A stretch of DNA of 61,982 nucleotides, filler included, from Hausera hauseri (taxonomy: Eukaryota), in the NCBI GenBank assembly GCA_046269625.1. It is 10 parts of 10 records of this genome, joined end to end, with 100 filler letters (N's around TTAATTAATTAA, not from the genome) between each part and the next. Parts side by side here need not be neighbours in the genome. Positions count along the whole stretch, not along the records: positions 56,712 to 61,982 come from JBJURY010294502.1; 9 more parts are not named here. The stretch is one strand, 5' to 3'. A program made the position numbers and the translations under genes. Below, piece by piece: positions 27,422 to 61,982 of the stretch. The stretch's first letter is position 1. Each line of letters opens with the position of its first letter. The notes under the pieces were generated by a model. The model did not search any database, was not told where the DNA came from, and worked only from the letters and a program-made list of their open reading frames with translations.

Positions 27422-28371
27422 TGTTTGTACGTCTGAACAAAATCCGCATTCCGACCCAAACTGATGTAATTCACATTGCTATGGGTAAACTTTTCCGAAT
27501 CGGTGGTATAACTGCCTGTTTGGTGAGCAGTCGTTTGAAATGTAATAAGCACAAATTTCATCAGTCGCATGTCTCTAAACAGTACATCTTTGTAGAACGA
27601 AGTTGAACCTTTGGGTATGGTGTAAAACACGAGTTCTCTGCGTTGTAATGGATAACAGGCATTTTATATTTCCAAGCCCAATAGATGTCTCATGTGCACA
27701 GATGGTTCTATCTTTACACGACGTACGTATAACCGTGCCTCGGTAATTTTCAGTATTGGTTTGAGATTTGCAACTGTAGTTTTCCAACGAAAGACATTGT
27801 CGCTGCATTGTAGCCGAATGATGGCTTTAACATCAGACGCTAGGTATTTCGGATGATCAAAAAAGTCAAAGTACAGCGGTTTACACATTGTAAGTGCTTT
27901 TGATGCTGCCACCCTTACCTGACGGTTTGCTGCAGTGGCGTCATATTTGATATTTTTCGTCAAATGAGTCGTTTTTATGTCTGTGCTGTAATTCAGAGCC
28001 GTTTCAATGAGTGCTTTGATACTGTATAGACTGGTGTTGTCTTCGATTTTGACGCTGTTCAGAGTCATTGAAGCTTCCTGGAACAGTGTGAGGAAAAAGT
28101 ACTTGGCCGGTGTGACATTGTATGTTGCAGCGAGAACCGTTGATGTCACTTTTTTAACAATGACTTTTACACAGAGTAGCGTATCGTTCAAATCCAGGTA
28201 TTCATTGTCTGATGCCATTATGTTGAAATGAATGTCAATGTTATCATCCGTTGAAACCGAATCAACGGAGTAGATTTCTTCAAATAACACACTGTCAATA
28301 ACAACTAGTGGCGCGCCTTTGTCAAATATACACAACTCAGATTTTGCAGATGCCATTTGTCTATCTGTCAA
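27422..28371 (-). pseudogene. Maverick major capsid protein (double jelly roll), frameshifted and cut by gap
   Basis: KSELCIF..IHFNIMASDNEYLDLNDTLLCVK..ITEARLYVRRVKI typical of Polinton MCP. Confidence 0.85.
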
Positions 28372-28375
28372 TCAG

Positions 28376-28712
28376 TCAATCGAAAATCGTACAACATCGA
28401 CGTTTGTTTATAGCTGATGAACTCGATGATGCTATACGGCATTTTCTCATCATCAAGCCACTGCCAGCGAATTGTTTTTTGACTGATTCAACGACTCCCG
28501 GTGAAGCGCTTTTTATTTCCGACAAGGCGTGTTCCTTCAGTGATGGCAAAATCGATTTATTTTCATATAGTACGTACTGTGCTGTTTTTCCTGCCACAGC
28601 ACCGATACGCTCCAACACCGGAAATGCTAAACGTGCCAATGTACGCAACCATCCAGACCCATATTGTTTACCAACGAAATACGGCAGATCCCCTCCATAC
28701 TGGGGTTTCCCG
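28376..28712 (-). CDS. Maverick small core/amphipathic protein
   Basis: QYGGDLPYFVGKQYGSGWLRTLARLAFP and FAGSG: repeated adenain-type GG/GSG cleavage-like sites; basic C-terminus. Confidence 0.65.
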
Positions 28713-28733
28713 TAAATGGAAACGATTTAAGAA

Positions 28734-29807
28734 TCAATTATGTTGGATTTGACGGAAATGAAGAGTTAGACTGCTTGTGGTACCGTACGGAAATTCAATT
28801 AGGTAGCCCGCGTCACATCCGATATTCACTTTAACATTGTTTATAGATGTAGATACCACAGGTAGGCACATTGGATTATCGAGTTTGCCAGCGACATTGT
28901 CGCCGGCAGTACAGTTGCTGCTTTCCGGATAAATTGAACGGAGTAGCGGTACAAGTACTCCACCGAACAAAATCGGATCGGTGACATTTACGTAAATGTA
29001 CATTTGACTTAGTCCCGTTTTCAGTTTGGGTTTGAGTGTTGCAACATGTACCACCGCCGTCTTCGTATTCGTCGATGCCTCAAACTTCTGTATTTCAAAA
29101 CTCAATATTATGGTCAAAGCTTTGTCCAATAAAATGTTAACAAAATCCGTAGCCAGTTTAAATTTAATGTACTCGTACTCGAAAACTTTAAATATCGCCT
29201 TGTACTTTTGATTTGAAAAGTGTTGACAGAACTGTGCTGCAGATTCGCAATAGACATTGTCTCCAATCGATACGTATGACGTTGACACAATTTCTGTTGT
29301 ATAGGTAAATTTCACCGTTGTCTGGTAATATACGTGATTTAATATATGAGCAACTATATTTTCACTTTTAATATTTGTACCTATTTACTCTGAATTTGTG
29401 AATCCAAATTTCTGCGCCATCTCAGAGAAATCAAAGTTAACAGTAAATTCAAAATCTGTCATAAAATGTAAGTTTTTCCCTAAAATAAAAACATCGATCT
29501 TGCTCAATATGCCGTAATTTGCTTTGGTTGTGCAAAAGCCCGATTCTCAGACTGTTATATTTTTGTTAGTAAGTGTCAGAGGACAAGAATATGTTATGGT
29601 TTCAGTAACAGTCTTATTGTACGTTATTTTCATACTACCTTTCAATGTCACCGGTGCGTAGAGAAAGTTAAATTCCGTCAGTGCAACCTCCCATTTTCTA
29701 CCCGATAAATCCAAAGGATTGTTTTAATTTACAATGTATTCACTGGCGGAATTGTTCAGACGAGTCGTTGGACAACTGTTGTTCGGCAACACAATGTTAA
29801 TACTCAT
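28734..29807 (-). pseudogene. Maverick minor capsid (penton) paralog 1
   Basis: MSINIVLPNNS..PLDLSGRKWEVALTEF; C-terminal MYIYVNVTDPILFGGVLVPLLRSI..SLTLHFR. Confidence 0.82.
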
Positions 29808-29851
29808 GATCTCGATGATGATGATGATGATAATGATGAGAAAGTTTGTTT

Positions 29852-30933
29852 ATTATCGAAGACGACGACGAAGTTGTAGCATCAAATGTGTCTTGGCTCC
29901 AAACAGAAATTTAATGGATTTTCAAAATTCGTCTACTATTTACACGAAAATACTGTGCACAGCATCAATATAACGGTACGTACATGGGCCGGATGATATT
30001 TACATGAGCATTTTCACCCGGTGCTTTATACGTGTCCGAATCCAATCCAATATAAGCCAATAGTTGTTTACGGTATCCGCCAATATATACGGGTTCGGTT
30101 AGATCCCTTAAAATATTGATTTGATGAAATGCTTCGTAGAGACATGGTTTCTGTTTAGCAACAATGGACCGTCCGCCGCCGGTTTGACCAAATTTTCGTT
30201 TCTTAAAACCCAGATTCCTTGCCAATAGTTCATCAAAGGCAAACTGTGTAACATTATCGTGCAGTGTAAAGGAAATACGATCATCGGAATTTAATTCAAA
30301 TGTCTTGAGAGACAATTTAGCTACTGCCTTGATGGTTGCACACAATTCTGTTTCCGTTTCCGTAAGAAAACCAATTCTTGTTGTATGGAAGTAAAAGAAT
30401 GATTCAATGTTTTGCCAGTTTACTGTAATATCCGTGGTTTTCGCAGTGGAAAAGTTAAATTTTTCACTAAATATACTATGTCCACCGAGCTGAAGACCTT
30501 TGGAGTGGACATTGGCAGATGATTGAAAACCCCATGCTTGAGCATCTGCTAGTGATTTAAACTGCAATTCAATCTGATGTTTGTGTTTTAGCACCAATCG
30601 ATTGTTTAAATGAAAAATATAAACCTCTATACTTTTTCGCTTGTAATATTTCCGCTTGTAATTGCGAACGTGAAATGTTACATTAGAGTCTCGGACTAAC
30701 TGCAAACGACTAGATGCACGAGATTGTCTTACTAGGGTATAGTATATTCTACTGTTCTCACGTATTGTTATTGGTAAAAATGTAAACGTGAATTCCGCCG
30801 AAGCCACTTCCCAGGCTCCCTGGCGTAAGTCCAGCGGCTCGTCCAACTCCATGGTAAACCGTTCAGCGGTATTGTTGTTGTTGTTGTCATGTTCTGATAA
30901 TCTGTTACTATTAAGTATCAAACAAATGCTCAT
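29852..30933 (-). pseudogene. Maverick minor capsid (penton) paralog 2
   Basis: MSICLILNSN..PLDLRQGAWEVASAEF; C-terminal DLTEPVYIGGYRKQLL..RPMYVPL..HLMLQLRR. Confidence 0.8.
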
Positions 30934-30934
30934 C

Positions 30935-31960
30935 GCTCAATCTGCGAAGCAAAAATCAAACTCCGTGTAGTGTATCCGTGCAACTTGAGGAGATATTGAT
31001 TATTCGAACCTTTGCCGCGTGAACGTAGAATTTCCTGAATACGATATACATTGGGTTTCTCGGGCAGTACCTGCAGTTCTTGTTCGAAGAATTTACCGCG
31101 TATTTCCTCGCCGTTTTCATCCTCTAAAACGCACGTGACAGGTATTTGTTTTGTGTTGATTGCCGAAATGCGGAAAACCTCGTCGCTCCAGTTCTGATTG
31201 AAATTCTTAATGAATGGCGTCCTACTTATTTTGAAATACGTACATAATCACCGATTTTATATTTGGACGTTTAATTGCCTGTCGTTATGTTCAGTTTTGA
31301 TAAAGCCGCATGTCCAAATTATCGATTACGCCAACTGGCCGTAATCCATTGATGCCACGATGTGTCGAATGATTCTATGTATGAATAATATCCGGCAGTA
31401 CATCTACCCAGCGTTTGTTGCCTTGCTTCGTAAAGAATTTGTACAGGCGACCGCGCAATGTTCGATTAAATCGTTCAACTAGTGCAGCCTTGTATTGGGA
31501 AAACACTGAGTAGTGGTTTCGCCAAACCGTTTCAAGACCGCTGCAACGTGGGCATTGTAGAATTCCTTACACAAATCCGTTTTAAATGCTTCGGTTGTTG
31601 TTTTTGTATTAGTGTCTGAACAGCGTCGGCAATCTCTTTACCGGATTTAGATTTCACAGCAATTGCACGGGCAAAACGACTAAACACATCAACACATGTC
31701 AGGATTTACCGATACCCATAGTTGATGCTGGTGTACAGAATCATTTCCATCAGATCCATTTGCCATACATTATTCACACAGGCAGAACGTATGCACTAGT
31801 TGGAAACTGCCTTCTTATCGGTTTGTTTAGACTGTATACTAACTGTTTCCCGAGCCAACGTTGGGTCTGCTGCCGAGTTTGTTTGACAGTCTTTTCCAGT
31901 ATACCCGACTGAATGACGCGGGTCGAACCAAACATTGTCTATTGTTGCCGTCGATGATGT
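30935..31960 (-). pseudogene. Maverick retroviral-like integrase with chromodomain-like end, heavily disrupted
   Basis: WFDPRHSVGYTG start; WQMDLMEM, TCVDVFSRFA, KAALVERFNRTL, RWVDVLP, QNWSDEVF, GKFFEQELQ pieces in shifting frames. Confidence 0.85.
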
Positions 31961-32099
31961 CGGTTTTGCTTTTATTACAACAATTAGAACGAAACGTAAA
32001 TGAAAGATTCGGTAAATTGGGACAGAAAGAAGAAAACCATACACATATATAGCCGAATCATCATATACTTACCGTCATTGTTTAACATTATGGTATAGA

Positions 32100-32315
32100 A
32101 CTAATGAGTCTACCCAGTAATGACGTGACAATCGGTAGAATTTCACCATGAATCCACCAACCTATCGTTTCAGTCGTTTACTACAGGCGTTGGCAAGGCC
32201 AATAAGTCGTTTTCGATACTTTAGTAAATTCCGCTTTTCACTACCAATGTCAACGTGACCCACGACGATATTGTACAAAATTTCCATCAAATCGTCTACT
32301 ACAAACTGTGGGAAT
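32100..32315 (-). pseudogene. Maverick basic core protein fragment
   Basis: LMEILYNIVVGHVDI..LLKYRKRLIGLA..GGF pattern typical of the small gene upstream of Maverick integrase. Confidence 0.6.
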
Positions 32316-33586: not shown

Positions 33587-34805
33587 GCGGAGGTCAAACT
33601 GGTAAAACAGTCATCAATTTTCACAGAAAACTATAAATTAAAAGCTCATAAATTAGTCTTAAAAAAAAAGGCTCCAAACTGCTCCAAAGCTGTTTCTCCC
33701 TCTGTTCTTATCAGAGAGATTGTGTGTGTGTCCGCGGTGCTGCAGGCAGACTGCCGGACGCATCTCTCTCTGCTTTTCTCCTTGTAAATTTTATTGCTGC
33801 GTTTCATGTGTTGTGCCTTCAGAGTAAAATTGTGTCTAAAGAAGCAGACGTGTTTCTGTGGCATAGTTTAATTATTCTCTGTTGTGTTTGTTGTTATTCG
33901 TGTTTGTTGTAGAAAGAGAAAGAAAGAGAAAGAAAGGTGGTTGTGCATGCAAATTGTTTTATGATCGATCAGGGCGAGTATTCGCTTGGGATAATTGTCC
34001 GCTTGTCCGCATATTCCGGAAAGCCTGACAGTTTTTCCCCACTTCGTGTTGACTTTTTCTGCTTTGGCCAAGTAGAGAGTTGGCGCCTGCTTATTTCATA
34101 AGCTAAGGTAGAAGTGTTTGTCGCTGCGTAAATACTCCGTTTTAAGCTACGGTTTTTAGCGGTTGCGGTTGACTTATTCTGTCAGCGTGATACTGACGGA
34201 TTTCCAGAGCTTTGTGTTCTGAAGAACAGACTTTCTGTGTCTGTTGGTAGAAGGGACCATCGCTGCGTGCGTTTGGTCATTGTGTTTCGTGATTTACGGT
34301 ATTAAAACCGTGTTGGTTGGTGGAGTGTCGCTACTGTGGTAGCTACGCCATTGTTGAACAGAGAAACACTGTTCTTGAAGCCGCTCCCCCCCAGGGTAGA
34401 GCATTCCTCTCTTGTGAGTGAGAGAGAGAGAAAAAAAAAAAGATCTTTTAAAAGAAACCAGAAAGGTTCAAACTTGTTGTGGTGTTTGTGTTGATACTCT
34501 GTCCACGAGTGGAAGAGTCAGAGAAATACTTTAAAACTCTTAGTGTTTTAAAGTTACGCCGCTGAGCGTTTTTCTACAGTGTTAAATCACTAAAGCAGGA
34601 GACAAGGACACCTCCTCGCTCAGGCGAAACAGAGTTTCCGCCATCTTGAAAAGAGCTAACAGGTTCTGTTAGAGTCCGTCCCTTCCAGAGGGCGGAGTGT
34701 TCACTCTCAGTGAGTGAAGAAAAAAAAGAGCAGTGTTGAGAGAAACTCAACCTGAAACAGCATTTTGATCTGTTGGTCTTTAAAAAGACTTAAAAACAGC
34801 TCAAC

Positions 34806-36242
34806 ATGGCTGAATCAAGTGATAAAATAAATTTGCTCATGGAAATGATGGAAGACATTGAAAGTGCTTTCAATTGGCTACGTGTCTTTCAATTATCAAG
34901 TCGTTTCCGTGAAATTCTACACGACTTTCACAAAGAGCACCAGGACCAAACTGAAAAAATTGAGACTCTTGAACATAAAATCAAGGTTCAAGGGGGAATT
35001 ATCGATTATCAGAAAACTTTGGTTCAAAGAAAGGATGATAAAATTGAGGAGTACCAAGTCCAAATTAAGGAGAAAGAAGTTCTCGCACAAAAAAAAAAAG
35101 ATTTGCTCCTGGACAATATAGCCCTCCTTGTAAAAACTACAGATCAGGCCCGTCGACTTGAGGATGCTGAACGAGAAATCAAGTGTCTGAACAAGGTGAT
35201 ACGGAAAAAAGAAAAATTCAAACAATGGCGTGACGCACGTATTCGTGCCACAAAGAAGCAATTTGAACAGTCCCTTGCTAAAAAAGACAAAATCATTCAA
35301 AGCATGGCTTTAGAACTGAGAAAACTCAGAACACCTAGTGTTTCCCCAGATGAGCTTCAGAGTGGAGATTCCACAGATTCAGATAAGGATCTGAGCAGAG
35401 CCTCCTGTCAGGCAGAAGATGAGTGTTCATCTGAGCTTCCTGACAACAGTGACTCTGTAAAATCCATTTCTGATTCACCTGACTCAGGTTCAAAACCAGT
35501 TCCTGAGCCACCCACTAGCCCTGAGGAGCTAGTGGTCCAGGCTACTACCAGTTCACCTGACACCCGTCCTCATGACAGTGGACAGGATGTCGAGGAGTCT
35601 GAGATAGTTCCTCGACCTTCCTGCGAACTGGAGGAGAGGGGGGTGACTGAAAGTCTGCCTGTGACAGTGGAGGTGCTGTTAGACGAGGAATCAGACATAC
35701 CTCTGAGTACGTCTGTCCCCTCTGAGGGGGGGCCGAGTGCTACAGCAGAAAATCCTAATGTGAAGCTCACTTTTTCATCAGAGAACGGTGGTTTGGTGAG
35801 AGAAGTCTCACCTCAGTCAGATGAGGCACAGGTGAACACACCTGAGCCCTCTCTGCGTCCTGTTGAAGCCATGAGTGGCCTTTTGACCTCTGACATGGCC
35901 CGAGCCATGCAGTCGTCAGGCCCTGCCTTTGTGATGTCTTGGGGTCAGAAAAACATGCTGTTAAAACCTGTCTGTAAGCCGCCGCGTACAGAGCCCAAAA
36001 AGAGCAAGCCAAAGGTCAAAGCAACACTCAGAGTGTTGAAACAAAAGGCCTACTGGAACAAAGTGGGAAGATATGTCAAAAAACATATCAAAGCTTTCCT
36101 GGTTGTTGACCGGTCGACAGAGCCACCTCTGTCAGGTTCCAGAAGTGGAACCTTCCCTCGGAAAGAGCTCTATGGAAACCAAATAAACCCTTTTGAAGTT
36201 CTTTCTAGCTTCCTAAAAGACAAAACTCTTCCAGGTGACTGA
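34806..36242 (+). CDS. 478-aa coiled-coil / acidic disordered protein of a non-autonomous LTR element (Bhikhari/crestin-like by architecture)
   Basis: Intact ATG ORF in good context (CAACATGG); K/E-rich heptads about aa 40-175; S/P/E-rich middle; no gag/pol motifs; downstream of LTR and PBS. Confidence 0.7.
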   Translation: MAESSDKINLLMEMMEDIESAFNWLRVFQLSSRFREILHDFHKEHQDQTEKIETLEHKIKVQGGIIDYQKTLVQRKDDKIEEYQVQIKEKEVLAQKKKDLLLDNIALLVKTTDQARRLEDAEREIKCLNKVIRKKEKFKQWRDARIRATKKQFEQSLAKKDKIIQSMALELRKLRTPSVSPDELQSGDSTDSDKDLSRASCQAEDECSSELPDNSDSVKSISDSPDSGSKPVPEPPTSPEELVVQATTSSPDTRPHDSGQDVEESEIVPRPSCELEERGVTESLPVTVEVLLDEESDIPLSTSVPSEGGPSATAENPNVKLTFSSENGGLVREVSPQSDEAQVNTPEPSLRPVEAMSGLLTSDMARAMQSSGPAFVMSWGQKNMLLKPVCKPPRTEPKKSKPKVKATLRVLKQKAYWNKVGRYVKKHIKAFLVVDRSTEPPLSGSRSGTFPRKELYGNQINPFEVLSSFLKDKTLPGD

Positions 36243-39066: not shown

Positions 39067-40357
39067 TACAGAGAGAGTCAAAAGTAACGAAGCAGTAAAG
39101 AGTAAAACATTTATGAACAAACTAGAAAAGATATAAGATATTTAAATCTTCGAAATACAATCTATTATGTTCTATGGTCTTTTGCCATCGATCATCCAAA
39201 TTTTCGATTCCTAACCGATACCATGCAGCCGGCTTTGAGGCGAATTACTCACGGACACTCTTCTCCACTTCGTTAAGGTTCCGAAAGGTTCTGCGGCGAA
39301 GAAAGTGAGCCATCGACCTGAAAAGATGGTAGTCCGAAGGAGCAAGGTCTGGGCTATAAGCCGGATGTGGCAAAAGTTCGATTCCATCCAGCTCCCGAAT
39401 TTTTTCTTGCGTAGATCGGGCGGTGTGCGGCGGAGCGTTATCTTGCTGCAGCAGAACCCGCTTTCTGTTGACAATGGCCGGGTACTTTCGGACTAAGGCC
39501 TCATACATCCGTTCAAGTTGTTGTTGATAGAGCTCAGCTGTGATGCCATGGCCATCTGGAACTAGCTCAAAATGTACTGGACCCTCAAAATTCCACCAAA
39601 CACATAACATGACCTTGTGTTCGAACCGTCCCCGTCTCGCCACAGGTTCTGGAAGCTGTCCCGGGTCCAACCACTGATTCCTTATATCAGGATTACGGAA
39701 GAAGATCCACTTTTCATCATACGTAACTACACATTTGATGAAACGCTCGTCCATTGAGTTTTTGAGTAGCTCCCGACAGATGTCTGCGCGCCGTTTTGCT
39801 TGTGCTGGTGTCAATTCATTATGGACAACTCGACAGCTCCTGTTTACTTTGCCGAGCTTGTGGAGGTGGCGAACGATACTGGTTTGTGAAACTCCAGTCT
39901 CTGCCGAGATTATGCGCGTGCTTGTGGCCGGAGTCGTCTCAACAGCCTGGAGCACAGCTTCAGAATCAACCGTTGAAGGTCGTCCGGAGCGGAGTTGATC
40001 GATGAGCTCGGTGTTGCCATTTTTGAATTTTGTGAACCACCTATGCGTTGCAGAAGCGGAGATGACACCTGTGCCCTCAAATTCGCATGTTTTTTCCGTG
40101 GTTTTACGCTCACTGCTTCCCTGTTTTTAATAATGCCGTAAAAGTGCTCGAATAGCTATTTTTTCGATGTCCGTTATAAAATCTATAAAAATTGTTAAAC
40201 AAAATCATATGACAATACGCATATTATATATAAAAGAGGATAAAATGAGATTTCGAATGATATGCTGGTTTTGTTAATTGTAAAGTTTATTGGCACATAA
40301 TCGACCGATGACGCAGTCGATAGGTAACTGCTTCGCTACTTATGACTCACCCTAGTA
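39067..40357 (-). mobile_element. Full-length mariner (DD34D) transposon, 1291 bp
   Basis: Imperfect ~30-bp TIRs TAC-AGAGAGAGTCAAAAGTAACGAAGCAGT / TACTAGGGTGAGTCATAAGTAGCGAAGCAGT with TA ends. Confidence 0.92.
39160..40174 (-). pseudogene. Mariner transposase, start codon mutated (ACG), internal stops
   Basis: RSGRP, VTYDEKW, QQDNAPPH, HPAYSPDLAPSDYHLF. Confidence 0.93.
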
Positions 40358-41511
40358 GTTTCGGCGTTTCATATTCCACTATCTGATCAGCAAAATTTTT
40401 AACAATTGTTATAATTTTATTTTGTTTACTTTGTCTATTCAGATCGAGTAGGGTTTTCTTTACTATAGGTTGTACGACTTTTTGATCATCCGTATCAATA
40501 GTTGGTTTTGTTAATGTTTCTTTTAGATGCTGAAGATATGCTTGCTTATATCTAATGCTCATAATTGATTCATTTTCATTATTGTTTCTCCATTTATTAT
40601 CCGTCATTTAGCTTCTTCTTCTTGGATTAATTCGTTCATCGGTCTTGCTGCAACATGGCATGCTATGCTCGGGATCATTCCTACATTTATTAGGAGTTCT
40701 TCGGGATCCAAAATTCTGTCAAAATATACTATCCTGAGGTGTTTCATGGGTTTATTCGTATGTGATCTGATTGCTTGTTCTAAATCCACAATTCGGCTAT
40801 TTAAATCTATTTCTAATATAGGGAAGAGATCACACTCCACACTTGGATGTACCGCTATTTTCTGATTTGAGAACCTTTCATCATTTAGATAGTAATGTCC
40901 CAATACTTTCAACAAAGTTCGAGATGTGCTATTATATCTCCATTTATCAGTTGCTTTTTTCGTTAATTCTTCTGCAGCCTCTTTAATTTCAGGAATATTA
41001 TTTTCTTTATTAAGATACGTCATTATTAAGTCGTCTAATGCTTCTGGAAATTCCTGTAAAGCTGTCATTTTTTCGAGAAGAGTTGAATTTTCTTTTATAT
41101 TTACGTTGTCACGTGTTTCTTCATCATTAAATTTATCAATGTTGAAGGCATCCAAGTCATATTGAAGTCTGTGATATTTATATCATCTCCGAAGCTATCA
41201 TGCATCTCGTAATATGTTATATCATCGATAGTACCTTGTAAAATCCTTACTGGTGAACGAGTCATTTCTTTCCTCATAGACCCTTTGCGCGGTCTATTTA
41301 GTCTTGTTTTTACTATGGTAGGTTTCTTTACAACAGCTGGTGTTATGTCTTCTTTGCGTATCTGTACATTTTCAACCAATTCTGGATATTTCATCTTTTT
41401 GTGATAATTAAGCGGTTTTTTCAATTTCTCTAACCGTCTTCTCAAATCTCTGTCTGTTTCAGTAATTTCTTTGACATACTGAGCGTTTTCCTCTAAATTT
41501 TTCATTTTATT
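40358..41511 (-). pseudogene. Retroelement post-gag region with ubiquitin-like domain (copy F), cut by mariner and gap
   Basis: ILEIDLNSRIVDLEQAIRSHTNKPMKHLRIVYFDRILDPEELLINVGM..CHVAAR fits the UBL pattern; NKIITIVKNFAD matches NKIAKISKQFAD in contig J. Confidence 0.62.
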
Positions 41512-52663: not shown

Positions 52664-55475
52664 GTTGTAAAGCTTGAACTGGTCCTTCTCAAAGATGTCC
52701 TTGGAATTTGTCCGCAACTTCGTATCGATACATATGTGGGGTTGCAGCCAGTTGGACTGGCAGAAATGCAGGGTTCTATGGATCTTAGTAATGCGGAGTT
52801 TATTCCTGATCGCCTGCAAAGATTGATGTAATGGACTACATACCTCTCCCTACTATCCAGATGATAGAGAAGCTTTCTATGCTTTCCATGCGGAGGGGGC
52901 TTTCTCTCAGGGACGAAAGACAGCTGTTGATACCTTGTGTGGATAGAAGCCGGATATTCCATATCCATTTCCAATATATAGCCCACATCTTTACTGGGAT
53001 CCAGATCCAGTATAGGGATGTTTTCAGGATGCTCGACCCACTTGAAATTATCATATGGCAATGGGACGCTTATTGCCCATCCATACAAATTTTTGATATC
53101 CAGCTGTGATATATATGAGGATTCCTAGGATGGATCATACTGGGCCATATACTTGTTGTTGGCCTCGCTATACCGGTGAATAGCCTGGCATATTCCACCT
53201 CTAATGCCTCTCTCGATCATGAGGATCATGTCGTAATGCTTTATGATTTGCAGCCTGACACCTGTATATCTCAGCTTAGCTGCCCAATTCATCCCCGGAT
53301 CCGTAAAGAAATGAGCCGGATTTAATGCATGGCTGTTTATCGTAACATACCTGAAGCTCTTAAAGACATCCATGAGTAACAGCATGTCCATTTTGAGGTA
53401 TATGCCGCTGTATTCTCCTAATGTTCGGCATTGAAATGCATGCCAGACGTTTTGAATATGCTGATAGTCCTCATCATTGATATCGCAATCAGACAGGACA
53501 TTGCAAAAGTCCTTCTTGGACGGCAATGAGGTTTCATTTAGTGTTTCCCATGAAGTTATGTAGTCATAGAGAAACACGCTTTTCCTCTGGACGAGGTCAA
53601 ATGCAGTGGGAAAGAACCGCTTTGTCTTTTTGAGTTCTCCTGCAGGGAGGTTCTTCACTAAACTGTCAAGTAAAGAACACAGGAAACGGAAACTGTCTAT
53701 GAAGCGAAGCTTGATTTTCCCAACATGCTTGGTAAATGTGATGTATATTTCCTCAATATTAGGGACCACATCAATGTTTCCTTCAATGTTGTCCAATTCC
53801 CGAACAGTGAAATGGGAGTATTAGCCACTGAGATTATGGAACACTACAAGCACATATGTTGATGTTTTGCAACGTAGATTGCAGTTGTTGCACGCTGCGC
53901 TCCCATATTTGCCTGTAAAATGGCAATGTTCCCTGACTTTATGATTCTCGTTAGTGAATGATTTGGAGCACAAGTAGCATGCTGTTTCCTTGCGCCATTC
54001 TTCTTGCTGCTTCGACATGCTTAGTGTATCCTTATGCTGTTGCTGCATATCTCCAATCCTATAAGCCATATCTTCAAGTCGTTTCATGAAATGCGCTGCT
54101 GCTCCTGGACCCTTAAATAGATATGGTTCACTGTCCAGTCCTTTGGCATACATGCAATATGACGTGAGCTCATGATATTGGAATGTCGTTGTGCTGCTGT
54201 GTTGGAGATTAGGACTACAATTCTGAACTGGACGCAAAATAGTCTCAAAGTTGTAATAGATCACTATTGGGACCTTGATCTTCTTTTCGAACTCCTTGAA
54301 TTCAATGTAATCCTCCTTGGGAAATTCTGGCCTGATACAATAATTGTTGTTGCAGTACATCTTGTGCTCTTTCAGCTTTAATACAGTTACATCGCCGCTG
54401 AAATGGGACATGCATCGTTTACATATTTCTATTTGTCCATGATGTTTCGTAATTTGTGATCTCACTAGCCGCTCAAAGTCTTTGATCCAAACATAATGTT
54501 TCTTTTCTCCATCGTCTAGTAGGAGCAGATCCCTATAATCTTTTAATTCAGTATAGCATATCTGCAGGGAATAGAATTTATCATCCTCGTCTAATCCTAG
54601 GATATTGATGGACATGTTGTTGACTTTTCTAAATTTTTTGAATTCATATATGGATGTAGGGAACTTGATACATTGGAAGTCATAGTTGTGCTGCGCATCC
54701 TTATATAGCCAAACTCGTGAAGCATGATTTTGATCCGCTACGAGTTTTGACAGAATGGCATACATGAAACATATGTTGTCGTTATTGTAGGTATTAACAC
54801 GTGCTTTTTTATTAGCGATCCAATCAGGGAGCTGAATATATGAACTGCCCCACATGTAAGAGTACTTGTGAACATACAAAATCAATCTCTTGATGGTTTC
54901 CAGAGTCAATCCGCTCTTCTTATCCTGGCTTTCCCAGCTTCACGGATCAGCTTCTCGTGCGCCTCTTGCATCCATCCTGCTATATTGGTGTTTTCCAATA
55001 TGGGTCTATTTTTGGTCTTAAAGACCTTATTGGTTTCTTCGCCATCAACATTGATGTACGTGGCCTCCAGTTTCATATTTACCTTTAGGTCTTTGAGCTC
55101 AGCCATGTTGTCCTGAAGAATCCCCTCTGCCTCGTTCTTTGTTGTTTGACCAGTTACCTCAATAACATATGTGCGGAATTTTCTCTTTAATGCTGCCGCA
55201 TCAACTGACCGTTGCCTTTGGCTTTTTGATGGAGCCGGTGCGTCTGATGTGGTCTTGCCTGATGTGGCTGCGCCTAATGCTGCTGCGCATGATGCGGCTG
55301 CGCGTTTCAGTTCTCTAATATGATTCGCAGCTGCTGCAGCAGATCCAGCAGCATAATGCGAGGAAGAATACTGCGAAGCATCATACTGCGAAGCAAATGC
55401 ATCAAAATTATGTTGCTTATTAAAGATGGCCTTAAAGATGCTCATTAAAGATGACTTTGATGCGAAGTGACTCAA
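52664..55475 (-). pseudogene. Maverick/Polinton protein-primed DNA polymerase B, disrupted
   Basis: GSSYIQLP, NICFMYAIL, HYVWIKD, VREHCHFTGKY..CNNCN, FHNLSG, RFIDSFRFL, IERGIRGG, NLYGWA, GYILEMDMEYP, FEKDQFKLYN. Confidence 0.93.
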
Positions 55476-56611
55476 ATGATGTTTGTGATTACAATAGAAC
55501 TGTATGTAATCTGCGCCGCATACCGTCTAACATCCTGGGCATATATAATAGAGGATCCTATTGAATTTGTATCCATAATAGATCCTCATGGCATTATGAT
55601 AATTTTGAGGATTGTGTATTGCACATGTGAACTGCATCTTTGATTTTGCTTAGGCATGGAAGTCATTATTGGCATAGTGATATTGAATATTTGTTTTTTC
55701 GACTTGGTGAAGGGAATCAGGTGTTGTTTATGAGCAATGTAAGTCTTTATATTTGGTCTGGCACACTACCTCACATGTAGGGCATATATAATACTCAGCC
55801 CTGTTGTATAGATGTCTGAAATATTTCTGTATAACGTTGTGGCAATTTCCAGGCTCGTGGATTTGAGCCTAGCACTGTTTGTATAGATTGCACATCTAAA
55901 AATCCGCCAATTATTTGAGGAGCACAAATAAAAATCTCACCATTGGTGGAAGTGATTTTGTAAATAATGAAACATGTAGCCATATCAACTCATACTGCCT
56001 CATTTATGGATTTCTTAAATTTTCGAACATTCTAGAACACTTTGTTTTAATGCATCAAATAAACTAAATGCACTTGAGGCCAAAAAGGTTTTCATACATG
56101 GGCAATCAAATGGAGTGATCATGTTGTTACAATAATGCATGCTTGACCGAATATTGCCAAATTTTTCAATGTTTCTTCATTTCGAGACACTTGTAAATAT
56201 TTTGCACATCAAATTTTTGGTCTGTAAAGGTTTTCGGACATGGGGAATCCGATGGTACTACTCGAATATTCGAATTCCATCGAAAAAGCGGCTTTCTTAT
56301 TTAAGCCTCCTTTTGAATATCTGACGTCATATTCGGATACAACGCATGTTAGTTTCTATGTGTGTACGCTTTTACATCTTTCGATTTCCAGTTGCTTGTG
56401 TGCTAAAATCAACTTTATAGGTTTTATCGGAAATCCGATATTATTGATTAAAGCACACTTGCACATGTGCTACACATCTGAAAAGTGCTATGTAGATGCA
56501 CTAAGACATTGGGAATCGACTGCCGCTGTTAGATTTCTCAAAAAATTTATGTTTGTCAAGATATTCGATACTATTCGGTGAAAATTGATATTTATTCGAG
56601 TTGTGCACCGA

Positions 56612-56711: not shown

Positions 56712-57155
56712 TTTTGATTGTATTTCTTAGTTTTTCTTATCTTATTGTATCCTGAGATATTTTGTAATTTATTGACGATCATTAAACCGTGTTTGTTAAA
56801 TCACGCTTTTGATTTTCGATAAACAAATACGTTTTGTAATGATGTTATTATTAGAAAACAAAACTAAGACCCACTTTTCTTTTACGATCATAAACAACCG
56901 TAGAACCACAAAATTTTATAACTAGAGGGACGACACTAGTGTTCCTCCTAATGTTCGAATTCACTAAGAATAAATAATCTATTAGGCAGACCCACAGACG
57001 GCTTCTAAGATTGAATAAAAATTCCTCTTGGCTTAAGTGAAGGAAGAACCTCAAATCATATATATGGATTTAAATAAGTATAAGTTTGAGGTTGAGAAAC
57101 CCAAACTTTTCTAAACTTTTTAAAATTATCACGTGTCTAACATAAAATCTTAACA
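56712..57155 (+). repeat. Probable 5' LTR (3' part)
   Basis: Ends TTAACA immediately before a TGG PBS-like site; AATAAA motifs; upstream of gag. Confidence 0.55.
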
Positions 57156-57156
57156 C

Positions 57157-57168
57157 TGGTTCCCCGAG
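57157..57168 (+). promoter_or_regulatory. Primer binding site (tRNA-Asp/Glu-like)
   Basis: TGGTTCCCCGAG one base after LTR-like CA end. Confidence 0.55.
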
Positions 57169-57243
57169 TAAGGAGGCACGCTGGCGTCGTATTCTTTACT
57201 CAATAAACGTAATGCACACGCTATAAATAATACGACTGAAAAT

Positions 57244-58000
57244 ATGGATTCAGCAAGAAGCCCATCCGCTTCTGAATCAGATACAGAAGAACAACAGAAT
57301 CCAAAAATATCTATCTCAAAGCCACGTGTCAGCTTTGGTATCAACCAAAGAGGCACGATGGATTTACCAATGGATAAATTTGAAGAAAAACAAGATAGAA
57401 AAGTTTTAGTTTGACACACGAGCTAAGGATGAAGCGTCTCCAAATTCATCTTAGAGGAATAGCACTTAGTGCTTATACGCAAGTTGATGAAGATGAAAAA
57501 CTGGTTGAAATAGTCTTAAGTAGTCAGTCAGGAAAGGATCGTATTGGAAAATTTAACAGGAGACAACAAAGAAAAGGCGAAACTGTGCAAGAATATGCAT
57601 GTACCCTTCAGAAGTTGACTGTAATAGTCAACGCAGATGAAGACATAAAAGAAGACACCTCCCTAACTCAGTTCTATTACGGAGTTACTAGACGAATTCA
57701 AAATTATATCATTTTTGCTGACTATGACAAGTACATAGAAGCTGTCAATCAGGCGAGTAAAATTGATGTAAATTACGAAAAGCTTGAAAATACAAAGAAG
57801 TTTCACAGAAATGATAACAAAAGGTGAAAATTTTTTAACAGAAGAAGGTCACTTTTCCGGAAGGTCATTTTTCAATCACAGAATCAACCTCAAAAATCTG
57901 CAATGAGGAAACCTCCGGTCAATAATGTTGGACAACCATTATGTTTCGCATGTTTAGAATATGGACACATGGCCCGCTACTGCCTCAGTTAAGGACAGTC
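57244..58000 (+). pseudogene. gag: Gypsy-type gag with CCHC zinc knuckle, disrupted
   Basis: RQQRKGETVQEY capsid motif; GQPLCFACLEYGHMARYC near 57930-57985. Confidence 0.85.
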
Positions 58001-58464
58001 GATATGAAAGAAGAAGAATGTCGATAAAATCGGTAATATATCTGACAAAGATCATGAGCTCGAGAATACAGATACGGAGACTTAGGATGCAATAGAAAAT
58101 CACCAATAGAAGATCAGAGCCAAACTGAAGGGAAGTCAAACAAATACAAATGATGATGAAAATAAAATAGCTAAATTAAAACAGCTGAACATCGAACTAA
58201 AAGAGCAATAAATTTGTGAAGAAAGGCACAAGATGAACAATGAAAGTTTGGTAACTGCTCCAGTAGGTAAGACTAAAAACTTTTGCGTCAGAAACAGATA
58301 CGGAAAAGAAAAATTTGAAAAAGGAAAACTCTTGATAGAAGAGGAGGATTTAAAGAATCCTGAGTCAGATTTATCTTACGAAAGTGAAGAAAGTAAAAAA
58401 AGTGAAAGTAGTGAGCAAAGTAAAAAGATAAATAAATAAAGAGAGAGAAACTTCACCTATAGAT

Positions 58465-59400
58465 TTGGATCTCGATGACACACAGATACTTCGAAAAATA
58501 TCGGGCTATGCTAATCAAAAATTAATTGATGGCATTCAGTTCAGACAAGATATTTCAATGTTGTTGTCACCTACAATTCACCATATAGATTTTTCTAATC
58601 TATTAGATGTGTTGTTAGTATATGCTGCTGGTAAAATTCCATATCGGGACGTCGTACAATATATAATCTATTGGTATACAGTTACAGTAAAAACGGTAAG
58701 AGAAAATCCCGAAGTTATGATTAGTCTTCAGCAATATAATCAAAATTTTTATGTATTAAGGATCACGTCGTTGGATACCGTGGCTGTATTGAAACACAGG
58801 ATTAATGAAGTAGCTCAACCTTGAAGAGAGTTAGAATTTCGTTTTACGGACAAACGTAATTAGATTACAAAACCATGTACGAAGTAGGTATGTGGTAAAA
58901 TAGATATAATCTAGTATGAATTGCTTTCAGACAATCCGAGCAAGAAATAATTGATGAAGTCATTACTGAAGTCAGACAAAAGGAGAAATAAAAAGCTGAG
59001 GGCCATTGTGAAGCTCAACAGACAGGTGACGCGAATATTACTATATAGGCGCAGATACAGATAGATAAAAGGAATCGTGATAGACCAAAGGGAACGACAA
59101 AACTTTACCAATTAAAAAATAGAAAAATGAGGGATGACGAAGTAGTTCGAAGATTACTAACGACTGAGAATAAACATTAATGCAAGTAATGTTCCACTAG
59201 CAACAATACTGCAGACTTTGTTAGCAAGGATGCACAATGCGTTCGTTGAATTAAACACCAATTTACAAATACTAGACTCACTGATGCAAATCATCAGGAA
59301 TAAAATAGCAAAAATTTCTAAGCAATTTGCAGATATTCCTACAGATAACAGAATAAACAAAATACAGGAAAGAAATATACTGTCGAGAATGATGGGAACC
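58465..59400 (+). pseudogene. Post-gag region with ubiquitin-like domain (copy J)
   Basis: VLRITSLDTVAVLKHRINEVAQP/LKRVRISFYGQT*LDYKTMYEVGM; NKIAKISKQFAD shared with contig F. Confidence 0.62.
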
Positions 59401-59439
59401 GGTATAACCAGAAGTAAGATCGTAACGGCAATGAGTAAT

Positions 59440-60070
59440 TGTGTAAGTAGGGTTATGGGCCGGCCTCTCAAAATTTTTAAACAAATTTAAATCGCTCGTC
59501 CCAACCACCACTGGCCCATAAAAATTGTTTTAAAAATTAGTAAAACCAACCCGTAACCCTACTTATACAACTACTCCTAACAAATAAATTATAAAAATAT
59601 ACAATGAGATGGATAATCCGAAAGCATTGATTATAAATTTAAATAAAACGTATAAAAATGAAAGCGAAAAATTATAAAAAATATTAAAATTTAATATTTT
59701 GCACAAAAATTGTGTTTTTAGAACCACTGTATTTAAAACTAAAAATACTTGTGATACTACAGGTTAAACCATTCTAAAGGCCTGTTTTTCAGCTTTTGAA
59801 TGATATATAAAACGTGTGCACGTAGTTATTTTTCATGTGTTTACAATGGTGAAAAGTAGATGAAATGTGTTTATTGAGATATTTAAAAAAAATTCAGAGA
59901 AAAAATGTGTTTTCAGAAGTACTGCATTTAAAATTAAAAATATCTATGATACTACAAGTTAAACCATTCTAAAATCCTAATTCATAGCTTTCGAATGATA
60001 TATAAAACATGTGTGCATTTATTATTCATGTGTGTACAATGCTGCAAAGTTGATGGCATGTGTTTTTTGG
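59440..60070. repeat. Non-autonomous DNA transposon-like repeat: local inverted repeat plus two ~195-bp tandem units
   Basis: TTGTGTAAGTAGGGTTATGGG / CCCGTAACCCTACTTATACAA; units near 59707-59872 and 59903-60067. Confidence 0.65.
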
Positions 60071-61303
60071 TGCAGAATTTAATTTTGCATCAGGGATGTC
60101 GTAAGGAAAACGCAAAATTTTACCTAAAAAAATAATTTTACCAGAAATTTTACTTTGTAAAGTAATAAATATAGGTATAACAATTGATTCATTTAAACAA
60201 AACACATTACATATTTTAACATAAAGTTAGATGTCTTTTTAATTTAAATTTAATTTTTAATAATAATTAATTTAAACGGTCCAGATTTTTTAATAAATTA
60301 TTTTACATAGAATATTTATAATATTTACTTAGAATGACACAAAATAAAAATGATGGTGACATTCAAAAATCAACTGGCAATATTGCAAAATATTTACCAA
60401 ATTTTTCAAAACCAGATATGGTGAATTACACCTTCCATCACACAATTTTACGGGTCCATTAACGAGACTACGAATGGACCCAACTTTAGATATCGAACGA
60501 ATGAAAAATTTTTGTAAAAATTTTGACAAACCGACTCATACCAGCTTTTTTATAACTACCCCCAATACTTCAGTTATAAAAGTATAACAATAGAAAAACG
60601 TCTTCAATTAATTCTGATTGTAAATTATGTGAAACAGATCGCACAGTTATAAAATTAGACAATAAATACACCTGGAGTGAATGTACAATTTCTAAATGTT
60701 GTATTAACATTTTAAAAAATATACAATAAAAATTAGTAGATGGTTAGGAGTGCACTGGGTCAACCTCTCCCCTGCCTAGGGAAAGTTGATGTGGTTCACA
60801 GATGACTCATGGGGTAGAAAAAATGATACACACACGCACGATTAATAGAGCGTAGGTAGGAGACACAGTCATAAAAGTGATACACACAAGCATGTGTACT
60901 GCATGGTTTGTAGGTAGAATTAAAATGTTGAATTTCATACCAACATTTTTTGTGTAAATTTTGGTATATTTGTTTTAATTTCGCAAAGTTTGTATAAATA
61001 TTAGTGTGTCAAATTGAAGTACATTTAAGACAATTAATTTAAATAATCATTTAAGCCAAGGGTGATTTTTTTAATTCTGATCGCCTAAATTAACTACCTA
61101 TTTAGAATGGCAAATTGGTTGTAGAAGGTGAAATTAAGCGACTTACAGAAGAAATATGCAGTGGGCAAATTGATTGTGTCCAATTCTTAAATGAAATACA
61201 GAATCAATACTTTTTATCAAGGGAAGACTATGTAGAACTTGTAGTTCGAATAATATGTATTACATACCTTAAAGAAGAATTTAAAAGAAGACAGAGAAAT
61301 GTT

Positions 61304-61982
61304 TTACTTGTGTGTAGTATCCTTGTACGTTAATAAATGCTTGTACTTAAGATGATTAAGATTGATCCCTTTGCATTTGAGGACTGGTCTGCTTTGAATT
61401 TTCAATGCATAACATTTTGGTCTCAAGAAAATTGCCTCTTGATAAACAACACAATCCTTACTTTCATCCTTAAATTTTCCGATTACAGACGCGAAACAAG
61501 TAGAGTAAAGCGGGTCGCTGCTATCATATTCTAAAGTGTCCAACTATTGATTGGCTATCATTGCTGGAAAGAGCTGTGATGACAAATCAACTCCATTGCA
61601 CTCAAGGAAAAGGCTATCTGTGTCACCGGCAATAATATTTAGCTGAAAATTGAACTGTTGCCTATTAGACTCCAACTCTATTTAATTCGATTCAAGCATT
61701 CTCAACTTAAAAAGATTTTTTAAAACTCGGGTGTTGGTAGATATTATTTTCTAGATAATTGAGGTAGTGGGCTTATGGAAGCAATATTTCGGAATCTTAA
61801 CTACTTTCAGATTCTCAATTTGCTCACATAAACTATTGGCTACAGATTGGAGATAAGACTGCTCATAAGGAACAGCCCTATGTAAAATATAAGGCTCCAT
61901 ATAGTCGCCTTCTGCTATTGCAAAAAGAATTTTAAGACCGTACTGTACATTGTAAGATGGAAATCGAGAAGCGTACATATAT
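61304..61982 (-). pseudogene. Second pPolB remnant (polymerase C-terminal part)
   Basis: AGDTDSLFL, IGKFKDES, FLRPKCYA, KCKGI. Confidence 0.85.

Follow-up and report, generated by a model that had tools for sequence, protein, structure and literature searches.

Positions 57331 to about 59436 of a stretch of Hausera hauseri DNA (61,982 nucleotides in its entirety, hereafter the window) probably represent a disrupted 5' portion of a repetitive Gag-Env retrotransposon, in whose cargo a ubiquitin-like domain (UBL) may serve as a non-conjugatable binding module. The identity and layout of the element, as read from the sequence, are highly probable; that the UBL acts as a binding module of a cell-death and ubiquitin-control cargo is a tentative proposal. 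On sequence grounds, the integral UBL of the window copy appears to be real but pseudogenised, within a Gag-Env element resembling Burro; this copy makes no such protein.

Layout of the element and its intact relative

The window is made of ten contigs joined by spacers, and the element lies on contig J (56712-61982), where the peptides quoted in the original prediction are present. We searched for relatives with the window Gag read through its stops, each replaced by X. This search yielded two matches among 470 candidates, each an unnamed singleton: P0002, of 451 aa, and P0003, of 1130 aa. P0002 terminates just before a helical domain that precedes the UBL, and P0003 is the only intact relative spanning the latter. 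This protein (E 1.4e-43 against the window Gag) is a natural relative consisting of one 1130-aa ORF, intact but ending within Env. In tblastn its residues 10-711 aligned in order over window positions 57331-59457, with 46-71% identity and four frame changes on the window side. The order of its parts is Gag capsid, CCHC knuckle, coiled coil, helical domain, UBL, Bcl-2-like domain, hydrophobic segment and gB-type Env. A Pfam search with the whole protein retrieved the CCHC knuckle (residues 197-212) and ubiquitin (473-522, E 0.031). Residues 651-748 resembled Bcl-2 (E 0.055, profile positions 6-100 of 100, 14.5 bits for a cut-off of 31.4), and residues 793-980 matched the viral fusion glycoprotein family PF24664 (E 6e-19). 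A single 19-residue segment (784-802) exceeded a hydrophobicity of 1.6. A search for related loci with P0003 confirmed 0 of 43 metagenome candidates and 0 of 1 viral candidate.

Table 1 Features of the element copy and its surroundings on contig J.
Feature	Position	Strand	Evidence
Putative 5' LTR end and PBS-like TGG stretch	57064..57175	+	Sequence, contig depth
Gag capsid region	57331..57824	+	tblastn to P0003 residues 10-32 and 46-189
Single CCHC zinc knuckle	57942..57983	+	Pfam zf-CCHC, E 0.028
Likely coiled coil and charged linker, in the capsid frame	57993..58436	+	73/144 identical to P0003
Domain of ~80 residues directly before the UBL, likely helical	58468..58710	+	44/81 identical to P0003 381-461
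Integral UBL, pseudogenised	58711..58937	+	47/76 identical to P0003 462-537, X at five breaks
Linker	58938..59177	+	58/80 identical to P0003; frame change near 59178
Start of a likely Bcl-2-like domain, truncated	59179..59436	+	66/93 identical to P0003 619-711
144-bp inverted-repeat unit, MITE-like, where the P0003 similarity ends	59433..59576	.	56-nt arms

Both the Gag capsid and the CCHC knuckle of a Ty3/gypsy LTR retrotransposon are present, as originally predicted, and are borne out by the two relatives at 51-53% identity. The window capsid shares 87 of 134 residues (65%) with P0003 across one frame change near 57399; P0002 matched the Pfam Ty3_capsid family (E 0.0036) and the N-terminus of P0003 the Drosophila Arc2 capsid (E 0.0068). 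Each relative has one knuckle (zf-CCHC, E 5e-5 in P0002 and 2.5e-4 in P0003). A second frame change occurs near 58430, at the end of the coiled-coil and linker region. The next domain, whose helicity was judged by eye without a prediction tool, had no PDB match at E<=10. Along contig J, successive plus-strand frames contained fewer stops than expected: 6 in 346 codons at 57399-58436 (28 expected), 0 in 130 at 58432-58821 (11 expected), 5 in 113 at 58821-59159 (9 expected) and 0 in 109 at 59161-59487 (9 expected). This succession of open frames points to a single long gene split by frame changes. The original prediction had allowed for a separate ORF between gag and pol; P0003 shows instead an in-frame domain between Gag and Env.

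Between the UBL and the Bcl-2-like domain, residues 582-589 of P0003 form what we take to be an AT-hook-like motif, the counterpart of which in the window (about 59070-59095) is altered. The Bcl-2-like part of the window copy did not match Bcl-2 in Pfam by itself. Similarity to P0003 stops inside this domain, with no tblastn match past residue 711. The 144-bp unit found there is a repeated hairpin whose 56-nt arms are 77% complementary (folding z -4.78, equalled by 0 of 200 shuffles), with no clear target-site duplication. The lack of a protease noted in the original prediction held, as a pattern search found no D[ST]G motif in the three plus-strand frames of 57990-59600. A pattern search of P0003 found no protease motif either, P0003 and contig J both ending before Pol. 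The likely reason for the missing protease is that Env precedes it and that the window copy breaks off within the Bcl-2-like domain. Further along the contig, there is a 195-bp tandem duplication within 59705-60069.

We gauged the copies of the element from the public sequencing run X1, in which 0.86 of the sampled words of 56712-59650 were present; the assembly may itself derive from this run, which we do not count as independent support. No RNA dataset was listed as containing this stretch. At 80% likeness, 11,691 X1 contigs aligned to contig J, with high summed depth along Gag and beyond. In the UBL bins the summed depth, which is not a copy number and is taken here solely as a sign of repetition, ranged over 31-914; in the helical domain it rose as high as 28,834, compared with 6-8 for single contigs. 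With the same meaning, it reached 3592 in the bin 57064-57239, against 144 and 19 in the adjoining bins. In this bin lies the putative 5' LTR end, with CA at 57154-57155 followed by C and TGG (57154-57159 in all); the PBS-like stretch starts at 57157 and its motif extends to 57168. We found no partner LTR within contig J, and the PBS-like motif matched no tRNA end in one tRNA table. At the other end of the contig, 60232-61982 is a different repeat (summed depth up to 89,590).

The disruptions of the gene seem to belong mostly to the window copy. Of the 12 stops that lie in the collinear frames, at least 6 differ in most copies among the entries listed (40 of 691 and 40 of 170), so that the decay is largely private to this copy. 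Two of these variable stops are in the UBL, at 58857 (6 contigs) and 58896 (45 contigs). A 173-nt contig (depth 8.4) spans 58780-58952 with 2 differences and no gap, which places the UBL breaks in the DNA. Of the more diverged material, a 422-nt contig extends through the helical domain and the UBL's first half as far as 58844, and a 393-nt contig covers 58859-59117. Near the UBL frame change, one alignment without gaps stops at 58844, and a joint begins at 58845; among the foreign contigs listed, none bridges the frame change by 31 letters.

The ubiquitin-like domain and its possible role

The original prediction placed a UBL at 58700..58895. A domain is present there, with a longer span than proposed, from 58711 to about 58937. 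We located its frame change by scoring every possible position against P0003: the best alignment (score 257) put it at 58839-58842, compared with 246 at 58818-58821, and the change thus falls near 58839-58845. The peptide LKRVRISF, which had looked most like ubiquitin, is largely an off-frame look-alike, the TGA at 58822 being an in-frame stop and the break lying at 58839-58842. A programmed frameshift or intron at 58820 was dropped as an explanation once the comparison with P0003 had moved the break. Four in-frame stops lie inside the window UBL, at 58822, 58857, 58896 and 58917.

Neither half of the window UBL had any PDB match at E<=10, and the 130-aa ORF of contig J had only unnamed matches in the Atlas, at 0.85. 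The window copy alone gave no Pfam ubiquitin match, so that the UBL call depends on P0003. Cut to 75 residues, the P0003 domain matched ubiquitin (PF00240) at E 0.0033, its sole match among 24,736 Pfam families, with 17.6 bits for a curated cut-off of 25.4 and profile positions 8-59 of 72; this match supports the predicted likely UBL. The proposal that the UBL is integral and lacks a C-terminal GG also agrees with P0003, in which the only GG is at residue 746, inside the Bcl-2-like domain, and none follows the UBL. The C-terminal Gly-Gly that defines type I conjugatable UBLs (ubiquitin, SUMO, NEDD8) is absent from P0003, and the domain would, in consequence, not be conjugated. At the position of P0003 that we take to align with Ile44 of ubiquitin the residue is polar, which makes binding to classical ubiquitin receptors doubtful. 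Identity between window and P0003 is 62% in the UBL, 72% in the following linker, 71% in the Bcl-2 part and 65% in the capsid; since conservation of the UBL does not exceed that of the adjoining parts, domain-specific constraint lacks support here. Most differences between window and P0003 probably reflect neutral decay of the window copy.

The collinearity, single ORF, domain order, lack of GG and decay of the window copy are directly observed; the remaining mechanism is a proposal. The hydrophobic segment 784-802 of P0003 would have two functions, anchoring the Bcl-2-like domain in the membrane and acting as an internal signal that sends Env into the ER, with Gag, the helical domain, the UBL and the Bcl-2-like domain on the cytosolic side and Pol, with its protease, after Env. 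Using a surface away from the classical Ile44 patch, the UBL might recruit partners from the host or the element, for instance proteasome/p97 adaptors or a RING ligase that the element encodes, and in this way could help to keep the host cell alive during particle assembly.

Alternatively, the UBL might be a processing or turnover signal by which the Gag-side product is earmarked for cleavage or proteasomal turnover; the proportion of Gag to Env and Pol obtained from one ORF would be set in this way. A single ORF has to be cut into Gag, Env and Pol. In pestivirus polyproteins, inserted ubiquitin signals cleavage, and UBLs at the N-terminus bring proteins to the proteasome. However, no GG follows the UBL in P0003 and the polar residue aligned with Ile44 speaks against classical proteasome-receptor binding, which leaves this role unlikely. 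We consider less likely again that the domain is a captured host fragment, carried in frame as a passenger without function. Although its conservation does not exceed that of the flanking linker, as a passenger would have it, P0003 keeps the UBL in frame, contig F of the window has a comparable domain for which our searches found no close cellular relative, and Burro, as described in PMC6431247, has a UBL at the same position before Bcl-2 and Env. Between these two roles and that of a binding module, we lean, tentatively, towards the binding module.

It is also improbable that the domain has another fold and resembles ubiquitin by chance. The Pfam score under the cut-off, the window halves that match nothing and the off-frame position of the best-looking motif would accord with a fortuitous likeness, and whole P0003 had no UBL or Bcl-2 match in the PDB at E<=10; yet ubiquitin was the sole Pfam match, over profile positions 8-59 of 72, and the Burro layout published in PMC6431247 predicts a UBL at this place. 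Moreover, with profile A1, built from the P0003 stretch, the window half and the contig F domain, 7 of 10 PDB matches were ubiquitin or UBL-bearing chains, these matches being weak (E 0.14-1.5) and, given the composition of the profile, not independent of contig F. Finally, the reading of this stretch as host DNA next to a gag that has been truncated is practically discounted: the summed depth does fall to a minimum of 31-42 at 58688-58771, but P0003 joins Gag and the UBL in one protein and other copies in the sequencing run cover the region, which is accordingly part of the element, as first proposed, and the host-flank reading was rejected.

Accessory genes and other elements in the window

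In contigs C and H an integrase precedes a membrane-anchored ORF, beside which there are other accessory ORFs; contig C has a RING (E 5e-8). The RING ORF of contig C (25829-26587, minus strand) lies upstream of an integrase fragment, and in contig H similar peptides, as judged by eye, come after the accessory ORFs; contig C may be a composite in which a piece of a second copy is attached to the 3' end of a first. The absence of Env after the integrase of contigs C and H would fit a Gag-Env-Pol element. P0003, which stops within Env, had no tblastn match to these two contigs at E<=1, and no record among those listed spans even contig J. A bolder and rather unlikely reading is that a compact Gag-UBL-Bcl-2-anchor-Env cassette is common to several distant lineages of enveloped retrotransposons in flatworms and that the RING gene of contigs C and H follows the integrase of the same element. 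If this were true, one retroelement would encode a UBL-plus-RING ligase pair together with a membrane-anchored Bcl-2 disarming host cell death, like large DNA viruses. The presence of UBL and RING on one element would not be new in itself, Burro having been described with both.

Contig F may represent a second lineage with such a cassette. On its minus strand (40607-41182), a second, unbroken UBL without GG (Pfam ubiquitin, E 3e-4) comes after a predicted helical stretch, and its stop shares bases with the start codon of the ORF that follows (40350-40607), itself interrupted by a mariner. This order resembles that of contig J, and the next ORF has a five-residue motif in common with the Bcl-2-like part of P0003. 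In the Atlas, contig F retrieved UBL-named clusters at 0.84-0.87, which we take only as a lead. An initial likeness between the domains of contigs J and F (11 of 5000 shuffles reached the score) was discarded, having used the off-frame LKRVRISF piece; it was lost in the corrected frame, where 597 of 10000 shuffles for J against F and 3102 of 10000 for P0003 against F gave no significant comparison. Searches for relatives of the contig F ORF found 0 among 45 and 0 among 530 candidates, and 0 among 1.84 billion representatives. Single-sequence AlphaFold models of its domain had low confidence (mean pLDDT 41.6 and 43.6), and Foldseek and VIA on these models were uninformative.

The mariner itself (39070-40353) has 27-nt inverted ends, and its transposase frame is 293 aa long (Pfam Transposase_1, E 4e-20). 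Elsewhere in the window, contigs D and I (27422-32315 and 52664-56611) contain ORFs that by eye look like Polinton/Maverick capsid and DNA polymerase B genes; Pfam retrieved from them only Endonuclease_7 (E 5e-4), for one ORF. Contig E has an open 482-aa frame (34794-36239, plus strand) that includes a likely coiled coil and an acidic section rich in proline; it had no Pfam match.

Relation to Burro and other retroelements

The original prediction held a domain of this kind to be unknown in gypsy elements. This was mistaken, since a Ubi2/SUMO-like domain between Gag and BCL-2 has been described in PMC6431247 (Arkhipova and Yushenova) for Burro/GYPSM1, giant gypsy-like LTR retrotransposons of planarians. 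According to the same account, these elements have high copy numbers and a Gag with two or three knuckles, Smc, MATH, Ubi2/SUMO-like and BCL-2 domains, the Env being in frame with Gag in one ORF and preceding the protease; an internal region of up to 25 kb and BIR, RING, ankyrin and dUTPase are further features. The UBL/Bcl-2/Env layout after Gag is thus already published, and the present element is a further example.

Burro/GYPSM1 and P0003 have in common a Gag with CCHC, a coiled-coil region (Smc in Burro), a UBL, a BCL-2-like domain and an Env, all in one ORF, and high copy number is common to Burro/GYPSM1 and the window element. As in Burro, the UBL (P0003 473-522) precedes Bcl-2 (651-748) after Gag, both at weak Pfam scores, and Env (PF24664, 793-980) lies in the same ORF before the protease, beginning by residue about 790. 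In contrast, the window, P0002 and P0003 have a single knuckle where Burro has two or three; between Gag and UBL, P0003 has the unassigned ~80-residue domain and no MATH match (Pfam, E<=1), MATH in Burro being in ORF1 or an upstream ORF; and the best UBL family is PF00240 (ubiquitin) in P0003 and PF11976 in Burro. By analogy, the element would resemble Burro in its working, differing in its one knuckle and lack of a MATH match; this likeness was judged from the published description.

A second point of comparison is provided by the Platyhelminthes errantiviruses with GAG-ENV-POL order and HSV/gB-type Env reported in PMC13524379 (Chary and Hayashi), such as Smed_errantivirus_1 and 2. Env follows Gag both there and in P0003, and the first Env block of P0003 was identical to that of Smed_errantivirus_2 at 17 of 31 residues, a by-eye count of one block. 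By this Env likeness, the host of the element is probably a flatworm. The likeness to this clade rests on Env and its position, Pol lying beyond the sequence in contig J and P0003. The cargo is not described in the main text of that article, where ubiquitin, SUMO, Bcl and Burro have 0 occurrences. Bdelloid rotifer LTR retrotransposons, as described in PMC5408684, are also gypsy-like with captured accessory genes, including a DEDDy exonuclease, and carry an extra ORF3; they are relevant to contigs C and H. Their cargo is a separate ORF after pol, and the text of that article has 0 occurrences of ubiquitin or RING.

The window copy, being dead, adds little in itself. The interest lies elsewhere: a layout that a review had recorded once, for planarian Burro, is extended to a different element family, very abundant and of more compact build, and P0003 is a short intact protein for the study of UBL and Bcl-2-like domains. 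A literature search outside subscription papers, Repbase and bioRxiv supplements retrieved no functional study of a retroelement UBL, and we found no published test of the role of these domains. Another Burro cargo has been reported to affect stem-cell survival: as mentioned in a passage of PMC13465017 citing another study, the RING-BIR region of Burro1 protects stem cells from apoptosis.
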